A program made the position numbers and the translations under genes. 64,000 nucleotides of DNA from Dehalococcoidia bacterium (GTDB lineage Bacteria > Chloroflexota > Dehalococcoidia > UBA2979): assembly GCA_965237865.1 (NCBI GenBank), contig OZ250164.1:309217-373216 (forward strand), written 5' to 3'. Of this stretch, positions 14,941 through 52,327 are shown in pieces. The number at the start of each line of letters is the position of its first letter. Position 1 is the first letter of the stretch. A model generated the notes under the pieces. That model had not been told where the DNA came from. It ran no database searches and worked only from the letters and a program-made list of their open reading frames with translations.

Positions 14941-16350
14941 ATGACGAACCCCTACCGCGAACTGCCCGCGATCGAGCGGCTGCTGGCGCACCCGCGCGTG
15001 GCCCCGCTCGCCGAGCGCCACGGCCACGACGCGATCGTGCGCGTCGCGCGCGAGGTGCTCGACGACTACCGCGCGGAGATCGAGCGCTCCGGCGCGCCGC
15101 CCGAGCAGCCCGCCGCCGAGGCGGTGGCCGATCGCGCCGCCAGCCTGGAGCCGAGCCTGCGCCGCGTCGTCAACGCGAGCGGCGTGATCATCCACACGAA
15201 CCTCGGACGCGCTCCGCTCTCGCAGGCGACGATCGCCGCGATGGCCGCCGCCTCCGAGGGCTACTCGAACATCGAGTTCGATCTCGACGCGGGGGAGCGC
15301 GGATCGCGCTTCAGCCACCTCGGCGGACTGCTGGCGAGCGTGAGCGGGGCCGAGGCGGGAATCGCGGTCAACAACAACGCCTCTGCGCTGCTGCTGGCGC
15401 TCTCGGCGCTCTGTACCGGCGGCGAGGTGGTGATCGCGCGCGGCCAGCTGGTCGAGATCGGCGGCGGCTTCCGCATCCCCGACGTGATGCGCCAGTCCGG
15501 CGCGACGCTCGTCGAGGTCGGCACGACGAACCGCACGTACCTGCGCGACTACGCGGAGGCGATCAGCGAGCGCACCGTGGCGCTGCTGCGCGTTCACGCC
15601 TCGAACTTCCGCGTCGTCGGCTTCACCGAGGAGACGCCGCTCCCGGCGCTGGCCTCGCTCGCGCGCGAGCGCGGGCTGTTGCTGCTCGACGACCTCGGGA
15701 GCGGGGCGCTGCTCGATCCCCGCGAGTACGGGCTGGCGGCGGAGCCGCTGGTGCGCGACTCGGTCGCCGCCGGCGTGGACGTGGCGCTGTTCTCCGGCGA
15801 CAAGCTGATCGGCGGGCCGCAGGCGGGTATCGCGGTCGGGCGCGAGCGCGCGATCGCAACGATGCAGCGCCACCCGCTCGCGCGAGCCGTGCGCATGGAC
15901 AAGGCCTCGATCGCCGGGCTGGCCGCCACCCTCGGCCACTACACCCGCGGCGAGGCCGTCGAGGAGATCCCGATCTGGCGCATGATCGCCGCCCCGCTCG
16001 ACGGGCTGCGGCGGCGCGCGCGCCGCTGGGTGCGCGCCTGCGCCGGCGACGCGGACGCCTCCGTCGACGTGGCGCGCTCGATGGTCGGGGGGGGCTCGCT
16101 GCCGGGCGAGGGCCTGGAGTCCGCGGTCTGCGCGATCGCCGCGCCGCCCGGCGGCGCCGACGCCTTCGCCGCCGCGCTGCGCCGCGCCGACCCGCCGATC
16201 GTCGCGCGCATCGAGCGCGGCGCGGTGCTGCTTGACCCGCGCACGGTCGCGCCCTCGGACGATCGCCACGTCGCCGACTCGCTGACCGCGCTCTGCGGCC
16301 CCGAGGAGGGCGCCGCCGACGGCAGCCCGGAGGATTCCACTGGACGATAA
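14941..16350 (+). CDS. selA: L-seryl-tRNA(Sec) selenium transferase
   Basis: 469 aa; VINASGVIIHTNLGRAPL, NNNASALLLAL and FSGDKLIGGPQAGI (PLP lysine) match the SelA family. Confidence 0.8.
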   Translation: MTNPYRELPAIERLLAHPRVAPLAERHGHDAIVRVAREVLDDYRAEIERSGAPPEQPAAEAVADRAASLEPSLRRVVNASGVIIHTNLGRAPLSQATIAAMAAASEGYSNIEFDLDAGERGSRFSHLGGLLASVSGAEAGIAVNNNASALLLALSALCTGGEVVIARGQLVEIGGGFRIPDVMRQSGATLVEVGTTNRTYLRDYAEAISERTVALLRVHASNFRVVGFTEETPLPALASLARERGLLLLDDLGSGALLDPREYGLAAEPLVRDSVAAGVDVALFSGDKLIGGPQAGIAVGRERAIATMQRHPLARAVRMDKASIAGLAATLGHYTRGEAVEEIPIWRMIAAPLDGLRRRARRWVRACAGDADASVDVARSMVGGGSLPGEGLESAVCAIAAPPGGADAFAAALRRADPPIVARIERGAVLLDPRTVAPSDDRHVADSLTALCGPEEGAADGSPEDSTGR

Positions 16351-18742
16351 GGCGCTCGCCGTCCTCGAGTTCCCGGCGATCCGGGAGCGGCTCGCGCGGG
16401 AGACCTCGTTCGCGGCCGGGCGCGAGCTGGCGCTGGCGCTGCGCCCCGTCGCCGACCGCGAGCGTGCGGTCCGGCGCCAGCGCGAGACCGCCGAGGCGGT
16501 GCGCCTGCGCACCCTGCGCGTCGACGTCGGGATGGGCGGCGTGCGCGACGTGCGGCCCTCGGCGCGCGCGGCGGGGCTTGGGCAGGTGCTCGCCGCCTCC
16601 GAGCTGCTGGAGATCGCGGAGCTCGCGAGGGCGTCGACGCGGCTGCGGCGCACCTTCGTGCGCACGCGGCAGGAGACGCCGCTGCTCTCCACGCGCGCCG
16701 CCGGACTCGCGGACCTCGAGGCGCTGCGCGAGCTAATCGCCACGGCGGTCGACGAGCGCGGCGAGGTGCGCGACTCGGCGAGCCGCGAGCTGGCGGCGAT
16801 CCGCCGCGAGCGCGACGCCGTGCACGGCCGCCTGCAGCAGCGCATGGAGGCGCTGCTGCGCTCCGCCTCACTGCGGCCCTCGCTGCAGGACCCGATCGTC
16901 ACGCTGCGCGACGGGCGCTACGTGCTGCCGGTGCGCGCCGAGGCCCGCAGCGCGGTGCCCGGCATCGTGCACGACAGCTCTGCCTCCGGCGCGACGATCT
17001 ACGTCGAGCCGCTCGCCGTGATCGAGCTCGGCAACCGCTGGCGCGAGCTGCAGGCGCAGGAGCGCCACGAGATCGAGCGCATCATGCGCACGCTCTCCGA
17101 GGCGGCCGGTGAGGCGGAGCACGAGCTCGTCGACGCCGTCGAGCGCCTCGCGCGACTCGACCTCGCGCTGGCGAAGGCGCGCCTCGCCGAGCAGATCGGC
17201 GCCGCCGACTTGACCGAGGCGGGGAACGACGCGCCCTGGCTCGTCGAGGCGCCCGCGGCGCTACGGCTGGTGGAAGCGCGGCACCCCCTGCTCGAGGGCG
17301 AGGTCGTCCCCGTCACCATCGAGGCCGGCGGCGAGACGCGCGCGCTGCTGATCACCGGGCCGAACACCGGCGGCAAGACCGTCGCACTGAAGACCGCGGG
17401 CCTGCTCTCGCTGATGGCCCTCGCCGGGCTGCCCGTCCCGGCCGACGAGGGCACCCGCATCCCCGTCTACGACGCCGTCTTCGCCGACATCGGCGACGAG
17501 CAGTCGATCGAGCAGTCGCTCTCGACGTTCTCGGGCCACGTGACGGCGATCATCGACATCCTCGAACGCGCCGGGCCGCGCTCGCTCGTGCTGCTCGACG
17601 AACTGGGCGCCGGCACCGACCCGACCGAGGGCGCCGCGCTGGCGATCGCGATCGTCGGGCGGCTCGTCGAGGCGGGCGCGACGCTGATCGCGACCACGCA
17701 CCACAGCGAGCTGAAGCTGTTCGCGCACCGCGAGGCGGGGGTCCTCAACGCATCCGTTGAGTTCGACGTGGAGACGCTCGCGCCCACCTACCGGCTGCGT
17801 ATCGGCGTGCCGGGCCAGTCCAACGCGCTCGCGATCGCCGAGCGGCTGGGCATGCCGGGCGCGATCGTCGAGGCCGCGCGCGAGGGCCTCTCGCACGGGC
17901 AGCGCGACCTCGAGGCGGTGCTCGGCGACCTGCGCACGCAGCTGAGCGCCGCCGAGGAGCGCGCCGCCCGCGCCGCCGCCGACCGCGACGCCGCCGAGGA
18001 GCTGCGCGGCGACCTCGAGCGGCAGCTCGCGACGCTGGCCGGCGAGAGCGAACGGCTGCGCGCCGAGTCGCGCGAGCGCGTGCGCGAGGAGGTCCGCGAC
18101 GCGGAGCGGATGCTGCAGCGCGCGCGCCGCGAGGTGGAGTCGGCGCGCCTCGAACAGGCGGCGGCCGACCTCGAGCGCGCGCGCGAGGCCGTCGCCGCGC
18201 TCGCGCCCGAACCGCCGCCCGCGCCGCCGCCCAGCGAAGACTCCCTCTCCCCGCGGGAGAGGGTTGGGGTGAGGGCTCCGCGCACGCTGCCGTCGCCGGA
18301 GCTGGGCTCGCGGGTCTGGCTGCGCGGCATCGGCTCACCGGGCGAGGCGCTGAGCGAGCCGGACGCGGCGGGCGAGTTCGAGGTGCAGCTCGGCGCGCTG
18401 CGCACCCGTGTGCGCCTCGCCCAGGTCGAGCGCATCGAGCAGCCGGACGGCGCGGTGATCGTGGCGGTGAGCACGCCGCCCGCGCCGAGCGCGCCCGAGC
18501 AGATCGAGATCCGCGGCCAGATCGTCGCCGAGGCGCTGCCCTCGGTGGAGGCCTTCCTCGACGACGCGGCGCGCGCCGGACGCGAGCGCGTGCGCATCAT
18601 CCACGGCAAGGGCACCGGCGCGCTGCGCCGCGCCGTGCGCGAGCTGCTCGCGCGCCACCCCCTGGTCACCGCCTATGAGAGCGGCACGCCCCAGGAAGGC
18701 GGCGAGGGCGTCACCGTCGCCCTCCTCGCCCACGTGCGGTAG
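16340..18742 (+). CDS. mutS2: endonuclease MutS2 (MutS domain plus C-terminal Smr)
   Basis: LITGPNTGGKTVALKTAGL (Walker A), DELGAGTDPTEGAALA, and a C-terminal Smr region (RIIHGKGTGALRRAVRELL). The N-terminus LDDKALAVLEFPAIRERL is conserved but lies upstream of the first canonical start (GTG 16499); CTG at 16340 with GGAGGA 6 nt upstream is the likely start. Confidence 0.85.
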   Translation: MDDKALAVLEFPAIRERLARETSFAAGRELALALRPVADRERAVRRQRETAEAVRLRTLRVDVGMGGVRDVRPSARAAGLGQVLAASELLEIAELARASTRLRRTFVRTRQETPLLSTRAAGLADLEALRELIATAVDERGEVRDSASRELAAIRRERDAVHGRLQQRMEALLRSASLRPSLQDPIVTLRDGRYVLPVRAEARSAVPGIVHDSSASGATIYVEPLAVIELGNRWRELQAQERHEIERIMRTLSEAAGEAEHELVDAVERLARLDLALAKARLAEQIGAADLTEAGNDAPWLVEAPAALRLVEARHPLLEGEVVPVTIEAGGETRALLITGPNTGGKTVALKTAGLLSLMALAGLPVPADEGTRIPVYDAVFADIGDEQSIEQSLSTFSGHVTAIIDILERAGPRSLVLLDELGAGTDPTEGAALAIAIVGRLVEAGATLIATTHHSELKLFAHREAGVLNASVEFDVETLAPTYRLRIGVPGQSNALAIAERLGMPGAIVEAAREGLSHGQRDLEAVLGDLRTQLSAAEERAARAAADRDAAEELRGDLERQLATLAGESERLRAESRERVREEVRDAERMLQRARREVESARLEQAAADLERAREAVAALAPEPPPAPPPSEDSLSPRERVGVRAPRTLPSPELGSRVWLRGIGSPGEALSEPDAAGEFEVQLGALRTRVRLAQVERIEQPDGAVIVAVSTPPAPSAPEQIEIRGQIVAEALPSVEAFLDDAARAGRERVRIIHGKGTGALRRAVRELLARHPLVTAYESGTPQEGGEGVTVALLAHVR

Positions 18743-18887
18743 GCAGCGCCGGATGCGCTGTCCGCCGGGTTGTACTGGGCGGACCCTGGTCATTGCGAAT
18801 GTGATATACCTGACGAGACCGCTTCGGCCGGGGGTGCCTGCGTCTCGCGCGGCGTTGGCGAGCGGTGGGCCGGGCCCGGTGAAACGC

Positions 18888-20561
18888 ATGACCTTGAGTA
18901 CTATCCCTCCCGCGCTGCTGGCGCTCCTCGGAGCAGTCGTCATCCTGCTGGCTGGCGCGCCAACGGCCCTGCACGCGCAGTCCACACCCTCGATTTCGAT
19001 CGAGCTGTCACCGGGTCAGCACGTCCCGCACACGGTCGCCCTCACGGGCGAGGTGACCCTGAGCAACCTGGCCCCTGCTGACTACTCGATGGTGACGCTC
19101 CGCGCCGACATCACCGGGCACGAGGATCGGACGAGCCACTGCTACGGCGAGGACACCAGCAGCGATATCGAACTCGCGGTGGACGAGAGTCTGGAGGCAG
19201 TAACGCTCAGGCTGTTCAAGCCCTGCACGAATGCCCCGGGCGGATTCGGAACGTATGACTACGCGCTCACGATCAGCGTATCGAGGGCCGATCCGATGCA
19301 GCCCGGCGACACCATCGAGCTGGTATCGATGCACGTGCCCTTCCTGGTGTCGACATACCTGACTCCCGGGGAGCAGACCCTTCCGGCCCCTGATCCCAGT
19401 GCGCTGGCCTGGTTTGACCCGGATCCCAGAACTTCCGCGATGTACGTGGGAGAGTGGCGCCAATTCCGCTTCCGCACGGACATTTCCAGGTATGCCGAAG
19501 ACCATCTGAACGTGTACGTGGACGCCGGCGATCCCGGTGACTTCGTTGCGAGATCGGGCGAAGGTCCTTCTCCCGGCAGCGCCGAGGAAGCCTGCAACGA
19601 CTCGCATCCAACGCAGAACTGGCGTCGTGCCATCCATCAGCCTCTCTGGGTTGTTCCCTGCAAGCCGGGTCCGGCAGTCTTTTGGCTGTCGCACGAGACC
19701 CTGGGCGTGCCGCCCCTCTACACCTACGAATTCGAGGTGTACCCGGCCGACGAATCTCGAGGAGGGCCGATCGTTGGTGGGCCGAGTGGCGGGGGCGGCG
19801 CTCCGCCCTCGTCCGGCCCCACGCCGAGTGGCGGGGGCGGCGCTCCGCCGTCGTCCGGCCCCACGCCGAGCGACGCCGACTTCGCCTGGACCGTCGATAA
19901 GGACATCGACGCGCTCGACGCCGGGAATGACGAGGCGACTGGCCTCTGGGGCGACGGCGCGACGATCTGGGTAGCGCAGAACAGCGACGGCGGCGGCGAC
20001 GGCGTCTTCGCCTACGACCTCGCAAGCGGCGAACGCCTCGAGGATCGCGAGTTCGAACTCGACACCGCCAACCTCGCCCCGCGCGGCCTCTGGTCCAACG
20101 GCGAGACGATCTGGGTTTCCGACAGCGGCAAGGAGAAGCTCTACGCCCACGACCTGGAGAGCGGCGAGCGCCTCCCGGCGCGTGACATCAAGCTCAGCGA
20201 TGCGAACGACGACCCGCGCGGCATCTGGTCCGATCGGACGACGATCTGGGTGCTCGACGACCGCGACGAGAGCGTCTATCTCTACGACCTCGGGAGTGGC
20301 GAGCAGACGGCCGTCTACGAACTCGACGCCGCCAACGACGACCCGCACGGCATCTGGTCCGACGGCGTCGCGGTCTGGGTCTCCAACCACGACCCCAAGC
20401 GGCTCTTCGCCTACCGCCTCGTCGACGACGCCCTCGTGCGCGAGTCAGACGAGGACTTCACGAGGCTGGGCCGGGCCAGCAACAACAGCCCGCGCGGCAT
20501 CTGGTCGGACTACAGCGTGATCTACGTCGTCGACGCCCTGGACGAGCAGGTCTACAGCTGA
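18888..20561 (+). CDS. secreted repeat protein (five ~50-aa beta-propeller-like repeats; Pro/Gly linker duplication)
   Basis: Signal peptide MTLSTIPPALLALLGAVVILLAGAPTALHA-QS. The C-terminal half has five tandem repeats of the form GIWSDGxTIWVxD...YAYDLxSGER. An exact tandem duplication GGGGAPPSSGPTPS x2 lies around 19790-19870. Confidence 0.55.
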   Translation: MTLSTIPPALLALLGAVVILLAGAPTALHAQSTPSISIELSPGQHVPHTVALTGEVTLSNLAPADYSMVTLRADITGHEDRTSHCYGEDTSSDIELAVDESLEAVTLRLFKPCTNAPGGFGTYDYALTISVSRADPMQPGDTIELVSMHVPFLVSTYLTPGEQTLPAPDPSALAWFDPDPRTSAMYVGEWRQFRFRTDISRYAEDHLNVYVDAGDPGDFVARSGEGPSPGSAEEACNDSHPTQNWRRAIHQPLWVVPCKPGPAVFWLSHETLGVPPLYTYEFEVYPADESRGGPIVGGPSGGGGAPPSSGPTPSGGGGAPPSSGPTPSDADFAWTVDKDIDALDAGNDEATGLWGDGATIWVAQNSDGGGDGVFAYDLASGERLEDREFELDTANLAPRGLWSNGETIWVSDSGKEKLYAHDLESGERLPARDIKLSDANDDPRGIWSDRTTIWVLDDRDESVYLYDLGSGEQTAVYELDAANDDPHGIWSDGVAVWVSNHDPKRLFAYRLVDDALVRESDEDFTRLGRASNNSPRGIWSDYSVIYVVDALDEQVYS

Positions 20562-47842: not shown

Positions 47843-49314
47843 TGCTGTCGGTCTTCGTGCTGCTGCCGGCCGTCGGGGCCCTGATCATCGCCACGCTGCC
47901 GCGCGCCCGCACGGGCGACGCCCGCTGGATCGCGCTGTTCTTCAGCATGATCACCTTCGTGCTCGGGATCGTGATCTTCGCCCGCCTCGACCGCGTCGCC
48001 GAGGGCTACCAACTGGTCGATCGCTTCGACTGGATCCGCGCGGGCGACACCGGGTTCGCGGTGCAGTACGTGCTCGGCGTGGACGGCCTCTCGGCGCCGC
48101 TGGTGCTGCTCACGGGGCTGCTCGGGTTGGTCTCGGTACTGGTCTCGTGGCGCATCGACAAGCGGGTGAAGGAGTACTTCGTCTGGCTGCTCATCCTGGA
48201 GACGGCGGTCGCCGGGGTCTTCCTCTCGCTCGACCTGATCCAGTTCTTCTTCTTCTGGGAACTGGAGCTGCTCCCGATGTACATGCTGATCAGCATCTGG
48301 GGCAGCGGACGGCCGCGCTACAGCGCGATGAAGTTCCTGCTGTTCACGATGGCCGGTTCCGCGCTGATGCTCGCCGGCTTCCTCGTGCTCGGCCTCCAGG
48401 CGGGGACGTTCGACATTGCGGTGCTCACCGCAGACCCGCCGACGGAGGCGCTGGTCCCGCTCAGCCTCGTGTTCTGGCTGATCATGGCCGCCTTCCTCGT
48501 CAAGCTGCCGGTCTTCCCGCTGCACAGCTGGCTGCCCGACGCGCACACCGACGCGCCGACGGCGGTCTCCGTGATGCTCGCCGGTGTGCTGCTGAAGATG
48601 GGCGGCTACGGCATTCTGCGCATCGTGCTGCCGATCCTGCCCGGCGAGGCGCAGGACTTCCGAGTCATCCTCGCGGCTATCGCAGCCATCTCCGTGATCT
48701 ACGGCGCGGTGCTGACGCTGCAGCAGCGCGATCTGAAGCGGCTCATCGCCTACTCCTCGGTCTCGCACATGGGCTACGTGCTGCTCGGCGTGTCCGCGAT
48801 GGGGGCGGCCGGCCTCTCCGGCGCGGCGCTGCAGATGTTCTCGCACGGCGTCATCACTGGCCTGCTCTTCATCGTCGTGGGCCTGATGTACGACCGCACC
48901 CACACGCGCCAGATCTCCGACCTCGGCGGGTTGCTGCACCAGATGCCGCTGCTCGGCCTCGTGGCGATCATCGCGGGCTTCGCGGCGCTCGGGCTGCCGG
49001 CCCTGAGCGGCTTCGTCGCCGAGTTCGCGGTCTTCGCCGGGACGCTGCAGGTGCACCCGGCGGCGACGATCATCTCCGCCTTCGGCGTCGTGCTCGCGGC
49101 GGGCTACATCCTCTGGGCCGTGCAGCGCGTCTTCACCGGCCCCGCCAACGAGCGCTGGTCCGGCCTCGGCGACGCGACCGAGTGGTGGGAGCTTGCGGCG
49201 ATGGCCGCGATGCTGGTCTTCGTGATCGGCGTCGGCGTCTACCCGCGGCTGCTCACCGACGTGGTTGAACTCGGCATCGAGCCGATCGCGCTGATCGTGC
49301 GGGCCGCCGCATGA
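47842..49314 (+). CDS. nuoM: NADH-quinone oxidoreductase subunit M
   Basis: 490 aa; LHSWLPDAHTDAPTAVSVMLAGVLLKMGGYG. Confidence 0.9.
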   Translation: MLSVFVLLPAVGALIIATLPRARTGDARWIALFFSMITFVLGIVIFARLDRVAEGYQLVDRFDWIRAGDTGFAVQYVLGVDGLSAPLVLLTGLLGLVSVLVSWRIDKRVKEYFVWLLILETAVAGVFLSLDLIQFFFFWELELLPMYMLISIWGSGRPRYSAMKFLLFTMAGSALMLAGFLVLGLQAGTFDIAVLTADPPTEALVPLSLVFWLIMAAFLVKLPVFPLHSWLPDAHTDAPTAVSVMLAGVLLKMGGYGILRIVLPILPGEAQDFRVILAAIAAISVIYGAVLTLQQRDLKRLIAYSSVSHMGYVLLGVSAMGAAGLSGAALQMFSHGVITGLLFIVVGLMYDRTHTRQISDLGGLLHQMPLLGLVAIIAGFAALGLPALSGFVAEFAVFAGTLQVHPAATIISAFGVVLAAGYILWAVQRVFTGPANERWSGLGDATEWWELAAMAAMLVFVIGVGVYPRLLTDVVELGIEPIALIVRAAA

Positions 49315-50786
49315 ACTGGTACGAACAGCTCCACTACATCGGCCCGGCCTTCGCGCTGCTGCTCGGCGCGGGCGTCGTGATGACGGCCGACCTGATCGCG
49401 CCGCGCCGCGCGCCTGTCCTCGCGCTCACGATCCTCGTGCTGCTCGCGGCGGGCCTCTGGGCGATTGTGCAGGCCGTCTCCGGCATCGAGGGCCCCGCGC
49501 TCTCGGGCGCGATCGTCGTCGACCGCTTCGCGCTGTTCTTCACCTTCCTGCTGATCGGCGTCTCGCTGGCCGTCGTGATCGCCACTTCCGAGGGCCTCTC
49601 GCGCGTCGAGCACCGGCCCGAATTCTTCGCGCTGCTGCTGACGGCGACCGGCGCGATGGTGCTGCTGGCGCAGTCCAACGACCTGATCGCGATCTTCGTC
49701 GCGCTCGAGACGACCTCGATCGCGCAGTTCGTGCTGGCCGGCATCGCCCGCGACGACCGCTCCTCCGAGGCGGGGATCAAGTACCTGCTGAGCGGCGCCG
49801 TCGCCGCCGCCGTGCTGCTCTACGGCTTCGCGTTCCTGTTCGGCCTCTCCGGCACGACCTCGCTCGAGGGCATCGCCGCCTTCGTCCAGACCGGGTCGGA
49901 CGGGACACAACTGGCGCTCGTGCTCGGCTTCGTGCTGGTCGTGGCGGGGCTGGGCTTCAAGATGTCGATCGCGCCCTTCCATGCGTGGGTACCGGACGTC
50001 TACGAGGGCGCCCCGACGACCGTCACCACCTTCCTTTCGGTCGCCTCGAAGGCGGCGGGCTTCGCGGTGGCGCTGCGCATCTTCTACGGCGGCCTCGGGG
50101 GCGGCGACACCTTCATCGCCGAGCACTGGGCGGCGCTGATCGCCGTGCTTGCAGCCGCCTCGATGATCTTCGGCAACGCCGCCGCGATCCTGCAGACGAA
50201 CGTGAAGCGGCTGCTCGCCTATTCCTCGATCGCGCAGGCGGGCAACATCGCGGTCGGGCTCGCCGCCGTGGCAGCCGGGAGCGTCGCCGGGCCCTCGGCG
50301 GTGCTGTTCTTCCTCGGGGCCTACGCGGCGACGAACGTGGGCGCGTTCCTCTGCGTGATCGTCGTCTCCGAGCGCATCGGCGTCGAGGATCTGAGCGGTT
50401 ACGCCGGCCTGATGAAGCGATCGCCGCTGGTGGCGGGGGTGCTGGCCTTGTGCCTGCTCTCGCTCACGGGCATCCCCCCGGCCGCGGGGTTCCTCGCGAA
50501 GCTGTATATCTTCAACAGCGCGGTCCAGTCTGGCCACGACTGGCTCGTCTGGCTGGTCGTGATCGCCGTGCTCAACTCCGCCGTCTCCGCCTTCTACTAC
50601 CTGCGCTGGGTGCGCACGATGGTGCTCGACGAGCCCGAGGACGAGGCTCCCTTCCACGCGAGCGCGCCGGTCCAGGTGCTGCTCGGCCTCGCCGCCCTCG
50701 CGGTGCTGTTCTTCGGCCTGATCCCCGGTCCGTTGCTCGGCGCCGCCCAGCGCGCTGCGGAGACGCTCGTCATCGCCGCGCCGTAG
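49311..50786 (+). CDS. nuoN: NADH-quinone oxidoreductase subunit N
   Basis: 491 aa; FHAWVPDVYEGAPTTVTTFLSVASKAAGFA. Confidence 0.9.
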   Translation: MNWYEQLHYIGPAFALLLGAGVVMTADLIAPRRAPVLALTILVLLAAGLWAIVQAVSGIEGPALSGAIVVDRFALFFTFLLIGVSLAVVIATSEGLSRVEHRPEFFALLLTATGAMVLLAQSNDLIAIFVALETTSIAQFVLAGIARDDRSSEAGIKYLLSGAVAAAVLLYGFAFLFGLSGTTSLEGIAAFVQTGSDGTQLALVLGFVLVVAGLGFKMSIAPFHAWVPDVYEGAPTTVTTFLSVASKAAGFAVALRIFYGGLGGGDTFIAEHWAALIAVLAAASMIFGNAAAILQTNVKRLLAYSSIAQAGNIAVGLAAVAAGSVAGPSAVLFFLGAYAATNVGAFLCVIVVSERIGVEDLSGYAGLMKRSPLVAGVLALCLLSLTGIPPAAGFLAKLYIFNSAVQSGHDWLVWLVVIAVLNSAVSAFYYLRWVRTMVLDEPEDEAPFHASAPVQVLLGLAALAVLFFGLIPGPLLGAAQRAAETLVIAAP

Positions 50787-50820
50787 CGCGGAGCGAGAGC
50801 GCGCCGCGCGCGGCTCTCCC
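50787..50820 (+). terminator. GC-rich hairpin immediately after nuoN stop (possible terminator, no clear U-tract)
   Basis: GAGAGCGCGCCGCGCGCGGCTCTC palindrome directly after the TAG at 50784-50786. Confidence 0.3.
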
Positions 50821-51650
50821 CACCCGCCCGCCCTCGGAGTTTCTATCTGTGGGGGCTGTGTCCCCACGCCCCCGGCGGGTTGGCAGTGCAACCGCCGCCC
50901 CGAGGCAGGCGCATGTCTGTTGTGGGGGGCGCAGCCCCCCACGCCCCCATCCCGGAGGAGCACGCGCTGCGCGCGGCTCTGGCCCACCCGCCCGCCCTCG
51001 GAGTTTCTTTCTGTGGGGGCTTCGCCCCCACGCCCCCGGCGGGTCGGCAGCGCAACTGCGGCCCCGAGGCAGGCGCATGTCTGTTGTGAGGGGCTGCGCC
51101 CCCCACGCCCCCATCCCGGAGGAGCACGCGCAGGGTGCTTCTGTTGACGCGGGGATACCCCGCAGGGCGGCTCTGGCCCACCCGCCCGCCCTCGGAGTTT
51201 CTTTCTGTGGGGGCTTTGCCCCCACGCCCCCGGCGGGTTGGCAGTGCAAGCGCGGGCCCGAGGTAGGCGCGCGTCCGCTGTGGGGGCTTTGCCCCCACGC
51301 CCCCGGCGGGTTGGCAGTGCAAGCGCGGGCCCGAGGTAGGCGCGCGTCCGCTGTGGGGGCTGCGCCCCCCGCAGGGGGCGCAGCCCTCATCCAGACAGGC
51401 GCGGCGATGTGCCCTCTGTGAAGCCGCGGCGTCCCCGCGCGCGGGCGTCGAGGGCTCAGGATGGTCCGAGGCGTCTCGGGCACGGTTCGCTCAGCCGGTA
51501 CGGGGAAGGGAACCCGCTTTGGCGCGGAGCCACGCCGCCGGCAGCTCGTGGGGGTGTGGGGGCGCAGCCCCCACATAGAGAACAATCCGGGGTGGGTGGG
51601 CGGGCCAGAGCCGCGCGCAGCGCGTGCTCCTCCGAGTCCCTCGCGGGCAA
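50808..51650. repeat. complex tandem array of G/C-rich hairpin repeats (about three ~165-195 bp super-units, including a perfect 72-bp tandem duplication, plus one inverted partial copy)
   Basis: The hairpin core CTGTGGGGGC(N3)GCCCCCAC is followed by GCCCCCGGCGGGTTGGCAGTGCAA...CCCGAGGCAGGCGC and recurs at about 50847, 51011, 51205 and 51277. Positions 51205-51276 and 51277-51348 are identical. A second unit, TGTGGGGGGCGCAGCCCCCCACGCCCCCATCCCGGAGGAGCACGCGC, occurs at about 50921 and 51085. The connector GGCTCTGGCCCACCCGCCCGCCCTCGGAGTTTCT occurs three times. A reverse-complement copy of the connector plus unit-2 piece lies at about 51590-51645. Confidence 0.8.
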
Positions 51651-51691
51651 CCGCCTTCGAGGCGCCCTCGAAACCCCCGCAGCCTGACCGG

Positions 51692-52192
51692 TCAGCCGCC
51701 GTGGTGCTGGCCGTGGCCGCCGCCGGCGGCGTGGATCTCGCTGCCCAGGACGGCCTCCTCGCGCTCACGCATCGTCACGGCGTCCTCGGCGGCGTCGTGG
51801 TCGTAGCCGAGGAGGTGGAGCAGGCCGTGCAGCACCACGTGGTGGAGCTCCAGCTCGAAGGTGAGGCCGGCGTCCTCGGCCTGGCGGCGCACGGCGGGCG
51901 CGGAGACGGCGATGTCGCCGAGGAACGGCGGAGGCTCGTCGCCGTCCTCGCGATCGTCGCGCGCCGCGGTCTCGTCCTCCTCGGCGGGGAAGGCGAGCAC
52001 GTCCGTGAAGTCCTCGATGCCGCGGTGCTCGCGGTTGAGCCGCAGCAGCAGCTCGTCGCCGGCGAAGAGCAGCGCGACGGCGGCGGCGTCCAGGCCCTCG
52101 CCGGCGAGGGCGTTCGCGATCATCACGCGTACGGGCCGCACGTCGAGGCCGCGCGCCGCGCCGTCCAGCTCGATCGAGATCTCGTAGGCCAT
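51692..52192 (-). CDS. ybeY: rRNA maturation endoribonuclease YbeY
   Basis: C-terminal 166 aa of the 1052-aa track ORF; HHVVLHGLLHLLGYDHD zinc-binding H3 motif; ATG chosen by counting back from the stop. Confidence 0.8.
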   Translation of the reverse strand: MAYEISIELDGAARGLDVRPVRVMIANALAGEGLDAAAVALLFAGDELLLRLNREHRGIEDFTDVLAFPAEEDETAARDDREDGDEPPPFLGDIAVSAPAVRRQAEDAGLTFELELHHVVLHGLLHLLGYDHDAAEDAVTMREREEAVLGSEIHAAGGGHGQHHGG

Positions 52193-52327
52193 GGATCGAG
52201 GGTACAGGGGGCCGTGGTTGCGCGCCGCGAGCGCGAGCGATGGCGGGCGGACGGCTGCCGGCGCGCCGCGCTGGTACACTGGCCGGGCGGCGACGGCCGA
52301 GTCCCCCGGTCGGCGCATGGGGTGTCG

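Follow-up and report, generated by a model that had tools for sequence, protein, structure and literature searches.

What occupies the 905-bp spacer (50787-51691) in which nuoN and ybeY converge, by far the longest hairpin-rich spacer of the 64-kb stretch of Dehalococcoidia DNA analyzed here (the window), and what might it do there? The original prediction, that G/C-rich hairpin repeats fill this spacer, was borne out far beyond chance: the palindrome GTGGGGGC-N3-GCCCCCAC (up to 2 mismatches) occurs six times in the window, always within the spacer, compared to 0.08 expected from shuffles, and Tandem Repeats Finder detected both a 164-nt period (2.0 copies, 50800-51131, 91% matches) and a 73-nt period (2.3 copies, 51205-51369, 97% matches). 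Judged from sequence comparisons, the spacer is probably a local pile-up of a lineage-specific, dispersed and non-coding mosaic repeat of the repetitive extragenic palindrome (REP) or bacterial interspersed mosaic element (BIME) kind. By its sequence, the family is an undescribed REP/BIME-like relative, placed in no named family.

The predicted lack of coding potential was confirmed. Genes were called by a codon-position G+C method that reproduced the published calls on a twin contig. Codon-position G+C is flat across the spacer (0.74-0.77 in all six frames), compared to 0.68/0.47/0.96 in nuoN, and six open reading frames (ORFs) crossing the array gave zero Pfam matches. The ORFs on the spacer are spurious and repeat-driven, and its length is accounted for by the element array.

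The unit common to other genomes, as delimited by foreign-match coverage of the spacer and by alignments, is a three-hairpin composite of ~125-160 nt. It runs from hairpin A (TGTGGGGGGC-N3-GCCCCCCAC with an RCCCCC tail; 21 nt, 9-bp stem) through a conserved linker (ATCCCGGA(C/G)GAGC), stem P2 (GAGC.CGCGC-TGC-GCGCG.GCTC), four C-triplets (CCCRCCCRCCCRCCC) and a T-rich stretch to hairpin B (TGTGGGGGC-N3-GCCCCCAC with a GCCCCC tail; 19 nt, 8-bp stem). On sequence grounds, a single REP-like palindrome, GTGGGGG(G)C-loop-G(C)CCCCCAC plus RCCCCC tail, underlies both hairpin A and hairpin B, which stand head to tail around a conserved spacer of ~70 nt; between successive palindromes this spacer alternates with a second conserved one of ~45 nt. 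A long form carries a ~33-nt extension with its own hairpin, in two sub-types (GCGGGG-ATA-CCCCGC and GCGAGG-GATA-CCTCGC) that are one compensatory pair apart. Each sub-type is common to several genomes, and both co-exist in L059 (L-numbers such as L001, L066 and L148 denote loci or contigs fetched for comparison with the window). The earlier division of the array into a unit 1, a unit 2 and a connector did not capture the evolutionary unit, as genomes share 'unit 2', the 'connector' and the 5' half of 'unit 1'; what remains of the latter is a linker that is less widely shared.

Copies of this composite are dispersed, in agreement with the first of the options originally offered, a REP-like family. 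A profile of the four window copies recovered at least 30 further copies in at least 21 loci and five more in L148, giving at least 35 in at least 22 loci and at least ten assemblies. By a 22-base exact pattern, there are at least 4-5 loci per 3-3.6-Mb assembly and one locus in the window, and a hairpin scan of one genome per species with the pattern GTGGGGGCNNNGCCCCCACGCCCCC returned at least 116 loci. Extended similarity to the spacer (75-300 nt, 80-93%) was found, among the matches listed by BLAST and nhmmer, only in long-read 'Dehalococcoidia bacterium' assemblies. Other loci (L049, L066, L089 and L109) also have arrays, with periods of 167-244 nt. The 34 aligned copies have no common sharp element boundary or flanking direct repeat, their similarity fading gradually, and a literal text search with the motif sequences gave no relevant literature match. 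The window itself comes, by sequence, from an uncultured high-GC (about 72%) Chloroflexota lineage, as the sources of its NuoN homologues label them Chloroflexi or Dehalococcoidia bacterium.

Position and orientation relative to genes were scored with our own G+C-based gene calls. All 34 copies are located outside genes; of the 31 that could be scored, 25 have the stop codon of a same-strand gene on their 5' side, 0-110 nt from the element start. Copies were co-oriented in five of seven tandem spacers, the co-oriented gene was the nearer one in five of six single-copy convergent spacers, and all four copies in two independent two-sided spacers follow the co-oriented gene. Pooling the informative cases gave 14 of 17 (one-sided binomial p about 0.006, post hoc). 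Of the 19 spacers carrying the element, nine are convergent (an over-representation), seven tandem and three divergent, and the neighbors are ordinary metabolic or housekeeping genes. Orientation switches within a few hundred bases, tracking the local gene, which argues against a replication-strand rule.

Orthologous loci gave the array a history. In the twin metagenome contig of the same species (L001; NuoN and YbeY identical), 3+1 copies (direct plus inverted) are present, as in the window, in a spacer shorter by 80 bp (one hairpin-B sub-unit) and with an inverted hairpin-A loop. L066 (NuoN 93.7% identical in amino acids, 91.4% in nucleotides) has convergent genes and a 707-bp spacer with 2+1 copies, no 73-nt duplication and a center that cannot be aligned, while L148 (88% nucleotide identity over nuoN plus array) has 4+1. 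Copy number therefore differs between related genomes, as had been suggested. The element is absent from L143/L144 (NuoN 94%), where a 145-codon gene and other hairpins are found, from L145 (NuoN 85%), arranged nuoN-snoaL-ybeY(+)-IS481 transposase-dnaX, and from L146, L147 and L149 (NuoN 78-83%), in which nuoN, ybeY and dnaX share one strand and the nuoN-ybeY spacers measure 29-65 nt in L146 and L147. ybeY is inverted in the window, L066 and L148; nuoN, ybeY, dnaX and recR all lie on one strand in L145, L146, L147 and L149. As these more distant relatives without the array have ybeY uninverted, the comparison indicates that the array is a derived state at the site of the inverted ybeY and that its copy number shifts over short evolutionary distances. 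Four gene arrangements of the nuoN 3' flank occur within about 20% NuoN divergence, one including an IS481-family transposase between ybeY and dnaX (L145); together with the inverted ybeY, they make it plausible that the locus is a recombination hotspot. Inversion of ybeY by recombination between element copies was unsupported, as no copy or remnant was found in the ybeY-dnaX spacer. Two annotation points were noted at these loci. The public nuoN call in L148 (4001-5677) has 558 residues instead of 491 and runs 67 codons into the array, a repeat-caused artifact, and the 145-codon ORF after nuoN in L143/L144 (L143 5556-5993) opens with a stretch resembling a signal peptide and could be a genuine gene.

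The clearest constraint on the element is its C-tract, the best-conserved non-palindromic part, in which about 36 of 39 copies retain every one of the four triplets while the single-base spacers vary between A, G and T. The tract lies within a 22-nt core, GGCCCRCCCRCCCRCCCTCGGA. The strand opposite carries the G-quadruplex motif GGGNGGGNGGGNGGG, found four times in the window, once per element copy, compared to 0.09 expected; relative to the upstream gene, the G3N1G3N1G3N1G3 motif is always on the template strand, within the G-rich tract GGGCGGGCGGGTGGG, whose complement is C-rich. Quadruplex and i-motif potential had been attributed to the G5/C5 runs; the potential stands, with this C3×4/G3×4 tract and not those runs as the best candidate. 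The centroid fold of the sense strand shows three hairpins with unpaired C/U-rich linkers in between. It is conceivable, if unlikely, that the tract, single-stranded between very stable hairpins, is what does the work in a portable, orientation-dependent module that ends transcripts or insulates genes in high-GC Chloroflexota, where it would serve as a quadruplex/i-motif roadblock or as the landing site of a C-triplet-binding factor.

Under the REP/BIME-like explanation, the inversion of ybeY would have produced a convergent, 'safe' spacer in which the copies following nuoN and those following ybeY ended up opposed. Units would then have been gained and lost through unequal recombination or replication slippage among the head-to-tail units, the perfect 73-nt duplication being presumably the latest gain. 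The elements would be transcribed as the 3' untranslated regions (UTRs) of nuoN and ybeY, and their three stable hairpins could, like REP/BIME elements in Escherichia coli, act as 3'-exonuclease barriers and as partial, factor-dependent stops that insulate the convergent genes. Such a 3'-UTR barrier and partial-terminator role is plausible by analogy, as REPs are mainly located downstream of ORFs, between unidirectional and convergent genes (PMC3733652), and Escherichia coli REP325 is a partially Rho-dependent terminator and mRNA stabilizer (bioRxiv 10.64898/2026.03.23.713779). Canonical hairpin-plus-T-run terminators are not enriched in the window (nine in 60 kb, compared to about 9.8 expected), which leaves room for a role of the element at gene ends.

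Several results weigh against this explanation. RNAalifold and explicit pair counting over 22 copies showed that the stems pair but barely covary: 92% of the cells are paired, only two pairs have double changes, slid controls match the covariation scores, and departures from pairing are mostly unpaired, uncompensated bases. Selection on RNA pairing is therefore not demonstrated. Hairpin loops occur in both orientations, which, combined with the uncompensated stem changes, points to DNA-level palindrome behavior and decay rather than to a selected RNA fold; the conservation of hairpin B, which was the search bait, is ascertainment-biased and uninformative here. Single elements fold little better than shuffles (z about −1.7 to −1.9). 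No hairpin-plus-T-run terminator is present on either strand of 50787-51691, where the T-rich stretch precedes hairpin B instead of following it. The idea that the C-tract is a Rho-loading (rut) site received no special support, as it is no outlier of C-minus-G skew in the window, and is kept as a possibility; no rho gene was found in the sequence examined. The orientation counts are small, post hoc and dependent on our own gene calls, and the 80-bp difference of L001, seen in a long-read contig of 3.77x coverage, might reflect misassembly. Finally, the element occupies only one of the three convergent spacers of the window and is thus not the general terminator of this genome.

The main rival holds that the family is a purely selfish, non-autonomous element, similar to miniature inverted-repeat transposable elements (MITEs) or REPINs, which is mobilized in trans (for example, by a Y1 transposase of the REP-associated tyrosine transposase (RAYT) type) and has no host function, its position and orientation reflecting only where insertions were tolerated. 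We consider this possible yet doubtful. It would explain the many copies at unrelated loci of several species, the co-existence in L059 of two long-form sub-families that are each common to several genomes, and the presence or absence of the array among close relatives such as L143/L144, which lack it at 94% NuoN identity. The hairpins also open with GTGG, a variant REP head listed in PMC2817692 and PMC3733652, their stem mutations are mostly uncompensated, as in decaying copies, and their loops in both orientations are those of a DNA-level palindrome. However, the element has no terminal inverted repeats apart from the hairpins and no target-site duplication in the flank alignment. A tblastn search with E. 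coli RayT against 1.2 Mb of window and fetched loci gave no homologue (best E 1.9), RAYT genes being usually single-copy, no transposase recurred among 140 neighboring proteins, and plasmid, phage and viral collections returned zero matches (ten viral matches to a 17-mer were rejected as chance coding matches). Moreover, the C-triplets and other non-palindromic parts are conserved beyond the need of an ends-only parasite, and orientation tracks local gene direction even within one spacer.

The other readings start from structure rather than mobility. On duplex opening, with the hairpins assisting extrusion, the G3×4 tract might form a quadruplex and the C-strand an i-motif, making the element an orientation-dependent polymerase or replication block or a recombination-prone site. 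The restriction of the only four GGGNGGGNGGGNGGG motifs of the window to the four element copies, the near-invariant triplets with variable one-base loops and the repeated rearrangement of the locus are in agreement with this, as is an unrelated ~90-nt repeat, from a 64%-GC organism in one metagenome, that has exactly the same 22-nt core. The same conservation would, however, be expected from a C-triplet-binding protein or from use at the RNA level, the ~90-nt family has no clear orientation rule and G-rich tracts arise easily in 72%-GC DNA, so that we find this reading decidedly improbable. Tandem, independently transcribed small-RNA genes, or one long structured non-coding RNA, could account for the unpaired C-rich linkers between hairpins and for the folding of the whole spacer, which far exceeds that of shuffles on both strands (z −11.6 and −9.8). 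Base pairing among the repeated and inverted copies nevertheless explains these scores. The spacer has no sigma-70-like promoter and no terminator, the window has no Rfam 15 match at the gathering score and only chance-level ones (11-23 bits) at E up to 10, covariation is almost absent and copy number changes freely between close relatives; RNA genes are very unlikely. For the multi-hairpin sRNA and the terminator array that had been offered originally, the spacer likewise gave no promoter, no hairpin-plus-T-run terminator and almost no covariation, and both stay conjectural. Least credible of all, to the point of being nearly untenable, is a one-off local duplication scar or CRISPR-like array. 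The tandem structure at the locus would suit either, but the unit recurs at more than 20 other loci in other genomes and its copy number varies, as opposed to the scar that had been named beforehand as the refuting case, and the 'spacers' between hairpins are themselves repeated with no cas genes within 10 kb of the array, which agrees with the earlier dismissal of CRISPR.

The window array comprises three element copies in direct orientation, a further 2.3 sub-units of 73 nt and, next to ybeY, one inverted copy. nuoN (49311-50786, + strand; NADH-quinone oxidoreductase subunit N, assigned from its translation and from Pfam PF00361 on an identical protein) is the gene upstream of the direct copies, and ybeY (51692-52195, − strand; endoribonuclease YbeY, Pfam PF02130 on an identical protein), inverted compared to the four more distant relatives, converges on it. 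All units of the direct block stand head to tail, as judged by the RCCCCC tail and flanks. Copy 1 (50789-50873, + strand; nhmmer 50792-50872, 68 bits) begins 3 nt past the nuoN stop and lacks hairpin A; it consists of stem P2 (50795-50816), C-tract (50819-50833), T-rich stretch (50836-50848), hairpin B with one stem mismatch (50849-50867) and the GCCCCC tail. It is followed by the linker S2 (GGCGGGTTGGCAGTGCAA...GGCGCATGTCTGTT; 50874-50918, + strand), which recurs at 51038-51082 and, in a variant form, at 51232-51277 and 51305-51350, and which is common to the orthologous arrays and, more loosely, to a few other loci.

Copy 2 (50919-51037, + strand; nhmmer 50954-51036, 76.5 bits) is a complete short form, as supported by the family alignment and centroid fold. 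Its parts are hairpin A (50922-50942, GTGGGGGGCGCAGCCCCCCAC), CCCCCATCCCGGAGGAGC (50944-50961), stem P2 (50958-50979), C-tract (50983-50997), T-rich stretch (51000-51012), hairpin B (51013-51031) and GCCCCC tail. Copy 3 (51083-51231, + strand; nhmmer, family alignment and motif coordinates) is a long form with hairpin A (51086-51106, GTGAGGGGCTGCGCCCCCCAC, differing from the copy-2 hairpin by an inverted loop and one mismatch), an extended P2 (51122-51173), C-tract (51177-51191) and hairpin B (51207-51225). The loop region of its P2 is swapped for the conserved ~33-nt extension, including the hairpin GCGGGGATACCCCGC (51149-51163), and this extension is also found in four other assemblies (L011, L033 and L059; as a variant in L024, L034 and L059). 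Overlapping its end are the tandem 73-nt sub-units of hairpin B, tail and linker (51205-51369, + strand), the last of them partial (51351-51369). The exact tandem duplication that had been reported exists, with a unit of 73 nt (51205-51277 = 51278-51350); a 72-nt unit does not match at its coordinates. At the right end of the direct-repeat block lies a long palindrome with a 13-bp stem (GGGCTGCGCCCCC CGCA GGGGGCGCAGCCC; 51357-51386), identified from inverted-repeat pairs.

A non-repeated center of about 160 bp (51390-51549) follows, which is not conserved in the orthologous L066 spacer and has zero matches in Rfam or in other loci. Copy 4 (51550-51676, − strand; nhmmer 51633-51551, 68 bits, and an inverted-repeat pair) starts ~15 nt past the ybeY stop. 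A reverse-complement partial copy had been placed at 51590-51645. The copy is real, with its core extending over 51550-51634 (85 nt, 85% complementary to 50953-51037) and, including a variant 5' module, to ~51676. That module, with the hairpin TTCGAGG-CGC-CCTCGAA (51656-51672, − strand), also lies beside ybeY in L066, and the remaining parts are P2 (51608-51629), the G3×4 tract on the + strand (51590-51604), hairpin B (51556-51574) and the tail.

Many copies of the element are bordered by another family of hairpins, CCCTCTCCC-loop-GGGAGAGGG (L011, L017, L024, L033, L059, L065, L109 and L118), which forms a 65-nt-period array in L059 (1839-2121). Its sole window copy (18243-18263) lies inside the called gene 16349-18742 and looks like an in-frame intragenic palindrome insertion; the C-terminal end of that gene's product, IIHGKGTGALRRAVRELL, resembles by eye the Smr domain of a MutS2-type protein. 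The next 1.1 kb (18743-19850) has no codon-position G+C gene call and has same-strand genes on both sides; it is the only other window spacer of the size of the nuoN-ybeY spacer, with no strong perfect hairpin inside. Within the adjoining called gene 19851-20561, whose product looks like a protein of repeated ~45-residue modules (...GIWSDG..TIWV...), 4-5 tandem copies of a 129-147-nt unit are 69-78% identical (19914-20528).

Parts of the element have echoes elsewhere. The ~90-nt repeat of the 64%-GC organism (...CCCCTCCCCGGATGGTGGGCCCGCCCRCCCGCCCTCGGATGCTCCGCGGCT...; L120-L142, mostly metagenome Ga0114945) is often bracketed by GAAAAYG...CRTTTTC and is unrelated to the window family except for the exact 22-nt C-triplet core at its center. 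A metagenome search with a variable-gap pattern gave zero matches, and a second pattern returned only this shared core and L119, a 74.5%-GC metagenome contig. In L119 (560-680), a co-oriented GGCCCACCCGCCCACCCTCGGA tract followed by a G6/C-rich hairpin comes right after a stop codon; the product of the gene ending there has PHGRPTLVHVSGEAIARSFLRR as its last residues, which look like a MutL-type C-terminus. By sequence, this tract is probably a diverged family member outside the genome collection. The 25-nt unit GTGGGGGC-N3-GCCCCCAC-GCCCCC recurs with lineage-specific flanks in other GC-rich bacteria (the non-Dehalococcoidia loci among L003-L118). These include a mosaic repeat of at least 350 nt in CATOTI010000002 (at least nine loci, also with CTTTCTT and GCCGGATCGGC), 43-nt-period arrays in Ca. 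Viridilinea (L068 and L111), sites in Actinomadura, Kutzneria and Amycolatopsis that lie 60-100 nt past co-oriented tRNA genes, and recurrent sites with conserved flanks in Rhodobacterales. The actinomycete sites were rejected as 5' leaders given their positions downstream of tRNA genes, and an occurrence of the pattern in low-GC Firmicutes or Bacteroidota was likewise rejected, those contigs having 54-72% G+C; all contigs carrying the 25-nt unit have at least 54% G+C. Convergence of simple G5/C5 palindromes may be enough to explain these echoes.

For the uncultured soil members of this phylum, hardly any non-coding biology has been described, and the repeat gives them a well-defined mosaic family. 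As copy number differs between the closest available genomes, the array is of practical use for marking micro-diversity. Were the orientation rule and the conserved C-triplet tract functional, they would offer a handle on transcript ends in very GC-rich bacteria without hairpin-plus-U terminators. Should the C-tract indeed be the working part of a transcription-end module, the shared 22-nt core and the recurrences of the hairpin-plus-C5 unit, which across several GC-rich phyla sit where terminators might be expected, would mark a wider, unrecognized class of gene-end signals.

Among known systems, the family was compared to the REP/BIME clusters of Enterobacteria, Pseudomonas and Stenotrophomonas (PMC2817692, PMC3733652 and PMC3333891). 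It shares with REPs short G/C-rich palindromes that start with GT(A/G)G, hairpins A and B falling under the 20-40-bp stem-loop definition, and an extragenic location, mostly downstream of ORFs in unidirectional or convergent spacers. Mosaic clusters with conserved non-palindromic linkers, copy number and location that vary between strains (2-4 direct copies at the orthologous locus here) and proposed 3'-UTR exonuclease-barrier and partial-terminator roles are also common to both. REPs usually number more than 100 copies per genome; for the window family, the 22-base exact pattern sets a floor of at least 4-5 loci per assembly. There are also differences. The GTGG head of every unit pairs with a 3' CCAC, whereas the REP tag is described as unpaired (PMC3733652 and PMC2817692). 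Units in BIMEs alternate in orientation, whereas those of the window family stand head to tail, and head-to-tail dimers are rare in REP families. Each unit of the window family has an extra C5 tail, and its ~70-nt spacer has a stem of its own and the C3×4 tract. A RAYT gene flanked by inverted REPs, typical of REP systems, was not found in the 1.2 Mb of window and fetched loci.

Within the same phylum, the GTAG-23 REPs of Thermomicrobium roseum are clustered in blocks and associated with small palindromes (PMC3733652). They resemble the window family in phylum, in their GC-rich genome and in the association with other small palindromes (here CCCTCTCCC-loop-GGGAGAGGG), while the window family also has dispersed single copies and a much longer composite unit. 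MITEs, such as the Correia elements of Neisseria, are similarly 100-200 nt in length, dispersed between genes, co-transcribed with neighbors and hairpin-forming. The window family differs in having no separate terminal inverted repeats, target-site duplication or related full-length insertion sequence, none of the last being found among the 140 neighboring proteins or in plasmid and phage collections.

The BOX elements of Streptococcus pneumoniae belong to another phylum and base composition; they are not known to have a conserved C-triplet tract, and no sequence similarity to the window family is expected. In architecture they are alike. BOX elements are strongly folding, intergenic and non-coding, and are assembled from boxA-boxB(n)-boxC modules, one of which can be tandemly multiplied, with a module number that varies between loci and strains, as in the window family.

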